Part shown: positions 50,663-54,354 of the stretch, piece after piece | How positions within the stretch are numbered: the first letter of the stretch is position 1 | Layout of the letters: each line of letters begins with the position of its first letter | Position numbers and translations under genes: made by a program | Source: Ferroacidibacillus organovorans | GTDB taxonomy: Bacteria > Bacillota > Bacilli > Alicyclobacillales > SLC66 | DNA: 54,354 nucleotides | Direction: 5' to 3' | Assembly (NCBI RefSeq): GCF_001642725.1 | Contig: NZ_LSUQ01000014.1 | Span: 1-54,354 of the forward strand | Notes under the pieces: model-generated | The model's database searches: none | What the model was told of the DNA's origin: nothing | Seen by the model: only the letters and a program-made list of their open reading frames with translations

Positions 50663-52483
50663 TTAGACGCGCTGTGAGGACATCTTCTGCGCCTTTTCAC
50701 GATCTGATTTCTTAAGCACACGCTTGCGAATTCGCACAAAGTGCGGCGTAATTTCACACAATTCGTCCTCCGCGAGATACTCAAGCGCTTCTTCGAGTGA
50801 CAGGGTGCGCGGTGTCTTGAGTCGCACGGTGTCATCTTTTGTCGCTGAGCGAACGTTTGACATGTGCTTCTCCCGACAGACGTTGACGACCAAATCCTGA
50901 TCACGCGAATTCTCGCCAATAACCATACCTTCATAGATCTCGGCGCCAGGTCCGATAAAAAGAGTACCGCGCTCTTCGGCTGAACTAATCGCATACGCCG
51001 TTGAGGTGCCCGCCTCACTCGCAACCAGAACCCCATTTTGTCGCTCTGGAATGTCTCCGCGATACGGCTCGTGCCCGTGGTACGTGTGATGCATGATCCC
51101 GTAGCCGCGCGTCGCTGAGAGAAGCTCGTTGCGAAACCCGATCAAACCACGCGCCGGAACATAGAACTCAAGTCGCGTGTTCGAATCGCTCGGCACCATC
51201 TGCACCATCTCCGCGCGCCGCGAACCGAGTTTCTCCATCACGGTACCCACGTACTCTTCCGGTACATCAATGACCAAGTGTTCAATCGGCTCGAGCAGTT
51301 CGCCCGCCTCATTGCGTCGGAAAATCACGCGCGGTTTGGAAACTTGCATCTCGTAGCCCTCGCGACGCATCGTTTCAATGAGAATCGAGAGATGCAACTC
51401 ACCGCGCCCCGAAACGAGCAGCGAATCAGGGCTCTCTGTATCCTCGACGCGGAGGCTGACATCTCGCTCAAGTTCCGCGTAAAGACGACTGCGCAATTTG
51501 CGGGATGTGACATGTTGACCATCCTGCCCGATAAATGGGCTGTCATTCACCGAGAACGTCATTTGCAGCGATGGTTCCTCAATCGAAAGACTCGGCAGCG
51601 CCTCCGGAAAGTTGACGTCCGCCACCGTGTCACCCACCATCAAATCGCCGAGACCCGCGATCGCGACGATGTCTCCCGCCTCAGCTTCCGCCCACTCCAC
51701 TCTGCGCAATCCTTGAAACCCATACAACTTGCTGATGCGCTGATTGACAGACGTTCCATCTGCTTTGAGAACAACCACCGTTTGCCCAGACTGCACCTTA
51801 CCTCGAGCAATGCGCCCAATCCCAATGCGTCCCATAAATTCGTTATAGTCAAGGATGCTCGCCTGCCACTGAAGAGGAGCGAACTCATCCACATTTGGCG
51901 CTGGAATCGTTTCAAGAATGGTGTCAAACAGCGGGCGAAAATCCGTTCCCTCAACTTCCGTATCGAGCGTTGAGATGCCGCGAATCGCCGATGCGAATAC
52001 GACAGGAAAATTAATCTGTTCGTCGTTTGCGCCGAGTTCCATAAAGAGTTCGAGCACCTCGTCGACCACTTCAAGCGGGCGCGCCATTGGACGGTCGATC
52101 TTGTTGACGACGACGACCGGCTTTAGCTCCTGTTCAAGCGCTTTACGCAAAACAAACTTCGTCTGGGGCATACAGCCTTCAAACGCGTCGACGACCAGCA
52201 ACACGCCGTCTACCATCTTCAAGATGCGTTCAACTTCACCGCTAAAGTCAGCGTGTCCAGGCGTATCGACAATGTTTAGAAGCGTGTCTTGATACGTGAT
52301 GGCCGTGTTTTTTGCAAGAATCGTGATCCCGCGTTCGCGCTCTAGATCATTCGAATCCATCACGCGCTCAACCAGATGCTCATTGTCGCGAAAAACACCG
52401 GACTGCCGCAACATTTGGTCGACGAGTGTTGTTTTTCCGTGGTCTACGTGTGCAATAATGGCCAAATTTCTCATCAATTTCAA
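50663..52483 (-). CDS. typA: Translational GTPase TypA/BipA
   Basis: [40 protein letters not shown] and EITP..VRIRK. Confidence 0.98.
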
Positions 52484-52552
52484 CGGAAGATTCCACCTTC
52501 ATTAAAGTTGCCAATGGAGATTGACACTTCATTGTATCATAGAATTCTCAAA

Positions 52553-52657
52553 TTAACGAGCCCCTGAACCAAATTTAAACCCATACCATATGCTGATGGA
52601 AAGGAGCAGTACCGCAAGGGTGTAGACGATGACGCGCAAGCGTTGATTCGTTCTCAT
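52553..52657 (-). CDS. 34-aa single-TM mini-protein (Prli42/DUF4044-like)
   Basis: MRTNQRLRVIVYTLAVLLLSISIWYGFKFGSGAR: basic N-terminus plus one hydrophobic helix. Confidence 0.5.
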   Translation of the reverse strand: MRTNQRLRVIVYTLAVLLLSISIWYGFKFGSGAR

Positions 52658-52731
52658 CTCCTTGCGCTCGTCGAGCTTGCTGGAATACACCACGTGTAGA
52701 CGATGACGCGCAAGCGTTGATTCGTTCTCAT
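52620..52731. repeat. Perfect 38-bp direct repeat pair separated by a 36-bp unique spacer
   Basis: GTGTAGACGATGACGCGCAAGCGTTGATTCGTTCTCAT at 52620-52657 and 52694-52731. Confidence 0.95.
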
Positions 52732-52799
52732 ACTTTATGCCCCCCATCATAACGTAACATCACGTATCCACGGTGCATACCGCGGGCTTGAGGTGTCGA

Positions 52800-53273
52800 A
52801 TGAAAACAAACGTACGAAAGAAAAAAAAACAACCCGCCGCACTGTCCCATACTGCTCGAAAGCGACTCGTCTCAGAGAGTCGCGCGCTCGGGCTCACGCA
52901 GCGCGAGTATCTCGAACTGATCACCCAGTTGGCTGCCACGCTGCGCCAAAATGTATGGCCCAAACCGATTAAAAACAGTGAAATTTTGCGCACAATCGTT
53001 GAGAATCCTGCCCTGTTACAGATGATGGTGTCACTCGCTGGAACCCTTTATCGTTCAACGAGAGACGATGAGGAAACGAAGATTGAAGCCACTTCTGACA
53101 AACCAGATGCGGGAACCAGCACAGAGCGCGATGCAACTGCTGAGCGCGCGCATTCTCTCAATACGGTGCGTTCGGCGGCGCCCGCACCCTCACCCGAACG
53201 CGCTCGCTATGTTCGTGATCCCTTGACAGGAAGACCTATCGCCATTCACGCTCCAACCCATTCTCCACAGTAA
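52800..53273 (+). CDS. Hypothetical protein, possible N-terminal ribbon-helix-helix-like segment
   Basis: SD GAGGTG and ATG at 52800; basic N-terminus, LSHTARKRLVSESRALGLTQREYLELI; low-complexity C-terminus. Confidence 0.6.
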   Translation: MKTNVRKKKKQPAALSHTARKRLVSESRALGLTQREYLELITQLAATLRQNVWPKPIKNSEILRTIVENPALLQMMVSLAGTLYRSTRDDEETKIEATSDKPDAGTSTERDATAERAHSLNTVRSAAPAPSPERARYVRDPLTGRPIAIHAPTHSPQ

Positions 53274-53317: not shown

Positions 53318-54354
53318 TCACGGAATGGAAGGCGGCGCAAGCTGGGTGCCCAGCCTGCGCACATTGGTCTCGACGCTTAATCGAATCTTCACAGTAGGGA
53401 GTTGCTTATGCCAATCATAGGCCAGAAGTGCCTGATTGGTCGGAAACTGTGCGCGCGCATAGCGGAAAAAGCGAAATGGATCTGCGCGATCACGAGCGAA
53501 CACGCGCTGCATCAGAAGCATTTCTCTCGAATGGATCATGGCACTCATCGCGCTCGCCAGTTTGCGACGATTGGCCGGCGGGACAAAATTTCCGTTTGAC
53601 TCATCGCCAAGCAATTCCGCCTCGAAAGACTGTTTGATCGATAGCACGGGATGCGGACGAAGTGTCAGGCTCACATGCATAGGTTTCGCATAGCGAATCG
53701 CAAGCGCAACATACCCGCCTTTGCGAATCGGTGAAGGAACGCTCAATACCAAACGCTTTATCGAACCAGATAACAACTGGAGACTGCGCGTTTGCTCTCC
53801 TGTCAATAAATCCACCATCTTGTCGCCGCGAAAGACCGCGGTTCCCACATCTTCGACAGGATTGCCGCCGCTTCGATTCACCCCCCCCGGCGTGTCACCA
53901 ATCTCTCGACGAGACAAACCATTTGCTGACCCAGCCGTCTTCTTTTTTTGCGCAGCCACTCGCTCATTCACTGAGAGCACGGGTGCGACCGGATCTTCAT
54001 TCGGCGTTTCCATTTCCGTAAGAAACTGATGAACCTGCATCGACGGCGCAAGCCCTGTGCGTTTTGTCGTGGATTGAAAATCTTCAATCACACGCGTAGC
54101 GGACGTTTCCAAGACCGGTTTATCGTGTAAAAAGATATTAGAGATCGCACCTTTTGTAATAAAAAGAAACAGTGTTCTGCGAAATTCACGATACCGTGTA
54201 AGCGTGTTTAAATAAGGGAGCATCCCTTCACGCGCGACATTTTCGCTCACCATGACAGCGGCCAAATGAGAGAGGTTGATCGTTCGCTCCACCCCGGCGT
54301 TCATGACGTTTAGCGCTTCATTCAGCGTGTATCCACTCGCTGAGACAATCGGGG
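53318..54354 (-). CDS. Ger(x)C-family spore germination receptor lipoprotein (5' end beyond window)
   Basis: Frame is open to the window edge (..SASGYTLNEALNVMN..RTINLSHL..VAREG); GTAVFRGDKMV; DPF..YAR..F...DW C-terminal pattern. Confidence 0.85.
   Translation of the reverse strand, partial: PIVSASGYTLNEALNVMNAGVERTINLSHLAAVMVSENVAREGMLPYLNTLTRYREFRRTLFLFITKGAISNIFLHDKPVLETSATRVIEDFQSTTKRTGLAPSMQVHQFLTEMETPNEDPVAPVLSVNERVAAQKKKTAGSANGLSRREIGDTPGGVNRSGGNPVEDVGTAVFRGDKMVDLLTGEQTRSLQLLSGSIKRLVLSVPSPIRKGGYVALAIRYAKPMHVSLTLRPHPVLSIKQSFEAELLGDESNGNFVPPANRRKLASAMSAMIHSREMLLMQRVFARDRADPFRFFRYARAQFPTNQALLAYDWHKQLPTVKIRLSVETNVRRLGTQLAPPSIP

Follow-up and report, generated by a model that had tools for sequence, protein, structure and literature searches.

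The window analysed here is a stretch of 54,354 nucleotides from Ferroacidibacillus organovorans, contig C14 of its assembly, and all positions given without a contig name refer to it. Two identical 38-mers (100%) lie at 52620-52657 and 52694-52731 with a start-to-start spacing of 74, and a unique 36-mer fills 52658-52693 between them. This arrangement had been noticed in a sequence-only reading and was confirmed by direct reading and by a scan of the whole 3.03-Mb assembly. With up to 3 mismatches allowed, the 38-mer occurs there exactly 2 times with no copy on the reverse strand, and the reversed-pattern control gave 0 matches. Chance is very far from accounting for a perfect pair of 38-mers.

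The two copies have different neighbouring bases, G versus C before them and C versus A after them. Because of these differences on both sides, and because the donor match described below covers exactly the 36 bp of 52658-52693, the lengths are 38 and 36, and the division into 37/37 that the sequence-only reading had allowed for is dismissed. Each copy contains the hairpin TGACGC-GCAA-GCGTTG, whose core GACGC-GCAA-GCGTT had been pointed out before and is present in both. A promoter and terminator scan of the locus gave nothing besides this hairpin in each copy, and in Rfam, 52300-52950 matched nothing but a snoRNA by chance (E 0.63).

Read as its reverse complement, the 38-mer begins with ATG, the start of a hydrophobic ORF of 34 aa (MRTNQRLRVIVYTLAVLLLSISIWYGFKFGSGAR), which runs from 52657 to 52553 on the minus strand. 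The first copy of the duplication (52620-52657, no strand assigned) is, in the minus-strand reading, the first 38 nt of this mini-gene from its ATG, just as had been proposed. The mini-gene survives, its downstream copy being intact. The second copy (52694-52731, no strand assigned) keeps the native upstream context in the minus-strand reading and opens a new ORF of 25 aa. Downstream of the mini-gene, and on its strand, follows typA/bipA (50666-52474; TIGR01394, 923.9 bits), encoding a translational GTPase.

The counterpart of the mini-gene in a genome of the same genus (G001) has 34 aa and the same C-terminal half, and is located upstream of typA; none was seen in genome G002. Pfam and NCBIfam assigned the mini-gene to no family. 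Beyond the second 38-mer copy, a 157-aa ORF with a lysine-rich N-terminus and no Pfam family occupies 52800-53273 on the plus strand, and its neighbour at 53321-54304 on the minus strand encodes a Ger(x)C-family spore germination protein (TIGR02887).

A 38-nt repeat exceeds common k-mer sizes and a de Bruijn graph then leaves its copy number unfixed, so the structure could in principle be an assembly artefact, or otherwise a slippage duplication of local sequence. For the probable source sample (run X1), we used the independent contigs of Logan, which are contigs and not raw reads. A 96-nt unitig in X1 spans 52628-52723, leading from inside the first copy through the 36-mer into the second copy, and provides the junction-spanning sequence that had been sought. 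The 38-nt unitig has a depth of 37.2 versus 22.5, 14.7 and 8.2 in the neighbouring unitigs, about double because this sequence is traversed twice, as expected.

The structure is thus not an assembly artefact. The X1 contigs show that the junctions are present, and they make no statement on an empty allele in the source sample. Slippage on local sequence cannot create the insert either, since the 36-mer is missing from the empty site and originates elsewhere. Both the artefact and the slippage are therefore hardly credible.

The site without the insert is found in relatives. In G001, both flanks match (87% and 76% identity) around a single 38-mer homologue with no insert. The stretch or a part of it appears in 14 sequencing-run rows, four of which (X1, X5, X7 and X8) were compared. 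The empty site is present in 3 of 3 independent metagenome runs from three studies (X5, X7 and X8), on one long conspecific contig each. Their joint goes from 52619 to 52694, skipping 74 positions, with 38 letters fitting either side.

These bridging contigs of 2013, 13205 and 4217 nt have 3-4 other letters across about 550-730 aligned bases, and represent the unfilled site in conspecific populations. The prediction that relatives should hold one 38-mer and no insert is thereby borne out. As the empty site is found both in the same-genus genome and on the conspecific contigs, the event is recent and strain-specific.

The same sites bear on two further points. The 38-mer had been taken for a duplicated chromosomal target, and it indeed forms the 5′ end of a small gene that is conserved, and is single in relatives. 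It had also been asked whether the 36-mer is ancestral here; the empty sites lack it, and it derives from a foreign IS1634-family transposase gene. Tandem duplication by slippage was considered and rejected, because it needs all the duplicated material to be present once at the ancestral site and the empty sites do not contain the 36-mer.

The insert (52658-52693) reads on the minus strand as VVYSSKLDERKE, and is identical to an internal stretch of the foreign transposase gene. It corresponds to residues ~343-354 of the 604-aa relative P0002, a mid-gene position in an IS1634-family transposase and not an IS end. Full-length relatives of the donor include P0002 and P0003 (558 aa, 'IS1634 family transposase', from an Alicyclobacillus MAG), and the protein P0014 has the exact peptide context of the insert.

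The donor itself is visible in run X8, where three small contigs of 126, 212 and 78 nt agree with 52658/52659-52688 and 52659-52693 at 0 differences. In both directions these contigs lead into unrelated sequence, the change falling exactly on the insert borders. Two donor variants are present in X8, and the three differences in or beside the insert are all at third codon positions and synonymous in the minus-strand reading; hence the donor is a protein-coding gene. When the degenerate pattern of the insert's 12 codons was searched for, a single metagenome contig came up (locus L011), in which the 36-mer is present at 35/36 in the same flanking context. The ORF fragments of L011 match the IS1634-family transposase model NF033559.

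Thus the 36-mer comes from foreign mobile DNA with discrete borders in X8 and L011. An att-site scar was among the candidates and was rejected, as the 36-mer is flanked in the donor by transposase coding sequence on either side and by no copy of the 38-mer. The L011 element is an IS relic (1646-2630 of that locus) with several internal deletions, in which P0002 residues 55-102, 254-366 and 475-600 are still represented. Near 2614-2629 there is a candidate for the right terminal repeat; the left end was not found. Deleted IS relics like that of L011 occur also in L028/L045 and L044.

Other searches for the insert gave nothing closer. The own assembly contains no second copy of the 36-mer at up to 12 mismatches, the nearest others having 13 mismatches. 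The exact 36-mer and the degenerate coding pattern both had 0 matches in the viral contigs, and the exact 30-mer core had 0 in the metagenome contigs and 0 in the species-representative genomes. In the phage collection, partial matches to the 36-mer reached at most 23 nt and 0 records covered at least 80% of the query.

The donor IS is missing from the own assembly (G000), where tblastn with P0002 gives only a relic on contig C15. This C-terminal transposase relic (C15:52100-52305, residues ~521-587) is 55% identical to the donor IS clade, and hence the clade visited this genome earlier. A different IS1634-family transposase is found at the end of another contig (C68:11270-11822). The last 67-69 nt of C68 are common to the end of C2 and the start of C3, indicating an assembly branch point at a repeated element.

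The junctions are clean. Comparison of the window with the empty site and the donor revealed no shared base at either junction, and 0 bases were lost or added at the four ends. Such junctions without microhomology would fit integrase-type transesterification or blunt ligation, rather than slippage or microhomology-driven template switching.

Blunt ligation could have occurred in a repair accident with neither Cas1-Cas2 nor an IS transposase. Nicks on opposite strands 38 nt apart would have given long overhangs, and once these were filled in, their ends would have been ligated to a stray piece of degraded foreign DNA, 36 bp long, lying between them. The junctions without microhomology are compatible with this, and the assembly is missing a matching integrase. 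However, no Ku was found, no known process sets nicks 38 nt apart, and all four ends are intact to the nucleotide, with neither loss nor addition. Moreover, both lengths would fall within the CRISPR repeat and spacer ranges of the lineage only by coincidence. A repair accident is therefore an unlikely origin.

The source of the insert brings in the insertion sequences. An IS1634-family element may have inserted with a target duplication of at least 38 bp and then been nearly all lost. The loss would have been either by two internal deletions ending inside the duplicated copies, or by excision and rejoining of the break with a 36-bp filler from the element. The insert does derive from a transposase gene of this family, and long variable direct repeats of 8-514 bp are reported for IS1549/IS1634, for which that account, where it describes these repeats, gives no mechanistic model (PMC2266710).

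The coincidence that the donor comes from the one IS family for which long target duplications are reported favours an IS-linked route, a rival that the sequence-only reading had not listed. In related genomes and in L011, relics of this clade have undergone several internal deletions. Were the deletions to end within the long duplicated copies, a clean duplication with an insert would result, and flush borders would be unneeded.

Several observations argue against this course. The 36-mer is from the middle of the gene, and the terminal inverted repeats of relatives are absent from it. The absence of microhomology at either junction is unusual for two spontaneous deletions, and three events would be needed within a very recent, strain-specific history. 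In 0 of the 4 runs compared does a contig join the 38-mer to an IS end. No Ku gene for end joining was found in the 96.8%-complete assembly, which bears on the rejoining here as well.

The target duplications of related elements are short, too. The norm given for the IS1634 family is 5-6 bp (PMC2266710), and a Geobacillus member is reported with a 6-bp duplication (PMC8024623). Duplications of 5-6 bp were read in 7 of 11 related full-length copies: GTCCAG (L031), TTAAAG (L046), CTGGAA (L056), TAGAGA (L032), CCTAA with an uncertainty of +/-1 (L049), ATTTAC (L022) and ATCAAA (L020). The other four (L047, L057, L039 and L016) have no recognisable duplication, and a long duplication is absent from the inspected flanks of all 11.

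These 11 copies, read at both ends, are only 39-60% identical to the donor transposase and none is from the donor clade. Left out of the count are L021, L023 and L027 with no usable ends and L058 with no alignment to sister copies. The resident IS1634-family element on C68 branches into C2 and C3 with unpaired flanks and is likewise outside the count. For two Paenibacillus copies of a nearer clade (68% identical over the matched part), the 400-nt left flanks have no second identical copy in their genome.

On balance, insertion of a whole element followed by its loss is improbable, to a degree similar to the repair accident. Still less probable is a direct action of the transposase, in which an IS1634-family enzyme would have made cuts 38 bp apart in the target and inserted a short piece from inside its own element, with no Cas1-Cas2 involved. 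If true, this would be a transposase-driven way to CRISPR-like units.

The remaining candidate for an integrase is the Cas1-Cas2 adaptation complex. Cas1 was found in 19 of the 21 genomes searched, the own genome included. The sequence-only reading had noted no cas genes in the window, and the sole Cas1 match in the own assembly is on contig C25. The C25 locus is of type II-C, with cas9 (1117 aa, TIGR01865), a type II Cas1 gene (TIGR03639) and cas2 followed by an array. This array has 47 full 36-nt repeats and one degenerate repeat, and its 46 spacers are 40 of 30 nt and 6 of 29 nt.

The type II-C locus (C25:1532-9340; loci L097 and L096, outside the window) is apparently intact, and one 30-nt spacer is present twice in its array (6922 and 7448). 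A k-mer scan of the own genome revealed no second CRISPR-like array. The resident-array spacers have no phage match and two irrelevant short plasmid matches. Of 309 array spacers compared with the own genome and the collected loci, 0 have a full protospacer and nine partial matches cover 17-20 nt, so that these comparisons yielded no PAM.

The relatives have other systems. G001 has two Cas1 loci, one of which is a type I locus of cas3, cas8a1/cmx1, cas7 (DevR), cas5 (DevS), a 563-aa Cas4-Cas1 fusion (TIGR03983) and cas2. Its adjoining array has a 37-nt repeat, 37 being an upper bound from two full repeats at a contig end, and a 38-nt spacer. Repeats of 37 nt are found also in G006 of the same family (8 copies, spacers of 34-37 nt). 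In the sister family, four genomes have such repeats too, with spacers of 34-42 nt. Also common among the relatives are type I-C-like arrays, whose repeats measure 32 nt and whose spacers measure 32-41 nt.

For the region of the type I locus of G001 (L080:10914-19001, contig C30), the syntenic counterpart in the own genome (G000) is C4:13895-23327, which is 85-86% identical and ends before the locus is reached. The locus is absent from this syntenic region of C4. In tblastn, the six G001 cas proteins have no match in the own genome at 1e-3, where no relic of the 37-nt or 32-nt repeats was found either.

Thus the comparison with Cas1-Cas2 lengths is divided. The resident II-C system, at 36/29-30 for repeat and spacer, does not fit the 38/36 here, the duplication being 2 nt and the insert 6 nt too long. 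The systems of the same genus and family, at 37/34-38, nearly fit and were not found in the assembly, and the period of 74 is within the range of the lineage's 37-nt-repeat systems (71-79). The insert length is matched only in the relatives' 37-nt-repeat arrays, with 34-38 nt in the genus and family and 34-42 nt in the sister family.

The target sequence does not resemble a repeat or a leader-repeat junction, as the scores are not above those of shuffles. The 38-mer compares with the G001 repeat at chance level (673 and 1402 of 5000 shuffles score as high) and with the resident II-C repeat likewise (775 and 3006 of 5000).

The form of repeat, spacer and repeat with CRISPR-like lengths, a small hairpin in the repeat and a spacer matching a mobile element might suggest that this is a real and functional mini-CRISPR array, with two repeats and one spacer. 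Nevertheless, its 'repeat' belongs to a conserved small gene as the 5′ end, is single in relatives, is nowhere else in the genome and has no likeness to the resident repeat. Also, no cas gene is adjacent and the sole Cas1 is on another contig. Such a functional array is very improbable, only slightly less so than an artefact. The type II-C system cannot use the unit because the 'repeat' is unrelated to its CRISPR repeat, and the unit is presumably not processed.

We tentatively favour, with a probability of roughly 0.45, that the scar was left by off-target integration of the Cas1-Cas2 type and does not work as a CRISPR array. The starting substrate would be a 36-bp double-stranded fragment from foreign DNA with an IS1634-family insertion sequence. 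An integrase-type staggered attack would have joined it to one phosphodiester bond on each strand, the two lying 38 bp apart, at the first 38 bp of the small membrane-protein gene upstream of typA. Gap filling would then duplicate the 38 bp.

The likeliest catalyst would be a Cas1-Cas2 adaptation complex acting off-target, in a 'neo-CRISPR' event. Judging by the lengths, it may have been a type I module like the same-genus Cas4-Cas1/Cas2 and not the resident II-C one. Such a module may have been lost, may reside on unassembled or lost DNA, or may have acted in a conspecific, with the allele later inherited or recombined.

The locus shows what an off-target product should, namely a direct target duplication, a single-copy empty site and a foreign insert with discrete borders. 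The suggestion of a natural off-target acquisition, made in the sequence-only reading, therefore holds for the empty site, the insert and the junctions, and fails on the lengths of the resident Cas1-Cas2. Against the Cas1-Cas2 origin, even the best-fitting module is 1 bp off, with 37 nt versus 38.

Deviation of this size has precedents. In the type I-B system of Haloarcula hispanica, the duplicated length is reported as 29, 31, 32 or 33 bp instead of 30 when the anchor motifs are moved (PMC4872114), and a two-ruler model is described for type I-E of E. coli (PMC5039180). As the drift is 1-3 bp with displaced anchor motifs, a deviation of 1-2 bp at a foreign target is plausible. By this analogy, displaced anchor motifs would explain 38 instead of 37. 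A 6-bp deviation of the insert length by a type II-C module is unsupported by anything seen.

The insertion has changed the start region of the mini-gene. It puts AAGGAG directly against the ATG of the mini-gene (52658-52663, minus strand), and in the sequence ATGA (52657-52660, minus strand) the start codon of the intact copy shares bases with the TGA stop of the new 25-aa ORF upstream. By this layout, the intact mini-gene might still be translated by coupling, and such coupled translation would explain the tolerance of the scar.

Off-target spacer integration is reported mainly from E. coli with induced Cas1-Cas2, and the natural cases are described as circumstantial (bioRxiv 10.1101/148544). 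Here the filled site, the conspecific empty site and the donor in a species-holding community are all visible, and this makes the locus a clean natural test case for the origin of a repeat-spacer unit. The event is of a known kind, and for a natural one its documentation is unusually good.

The interest of the locus lies in its mismatch with the resident II-C lengths, for which there are three readings. One is that an adaptation module was once present and is since gone, which would bear on CRISPR-Cas turnover within a species. Another is that an integrase is active beyond its usual length limits. The third is that another enzyme makes such units, possibly linked to the IS family with the unexplained long duplications. 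If none of the three holds, the locus is a neutral 74-bp scar before a small gene.

Compared with known systems, the unit shares its repeat-spacer periodicity with the resident II-C array on C25, where cas9, cas1 and cas2 are resident and apparently intact. It differs in having a period of 74 versus 65-66 (36 + 29-30) and an unrelated repeat, the 38-mer being coding sequence. With the long duplications reported for IS1634/IS1549 (PMC2266710), it shares an IS1634-family donor, and 38 bp lies within 8-514 bp. However, there are no IS ends here, the 36 bp is from mid-transposase, and the related copies inspected make duplications of 5-6 bp.

The displaced-anchor duplications of H. hispanica I-B and E. 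coli I-E are alike in that the duplicated length is off the repeat length by 1-3 bp. Those reported were made with engineered repeats inside a CRISPR locus, whereas a chromosomal gene is the target here.

Off-target integration has been reported to found new repeat-spacer units in E. coli, with circumstantial cases in two other species (PMC6698737, bioRxiv 10.1101/148544). Our locus resembles the neo-CRISPR integration of Nivala, Shipman and Church (2018), as far as it is described there, in that a spacer-sized foreign insert lies between duplicated copies of a chromosomal target outside CRISPR, with a one-copy empty site and clean junctions. It differs in being a natural event in a Bacillota strain, whose 38/36 lengths depart from the resident 36/29-30 and come near to the relatives' 37/34-38.
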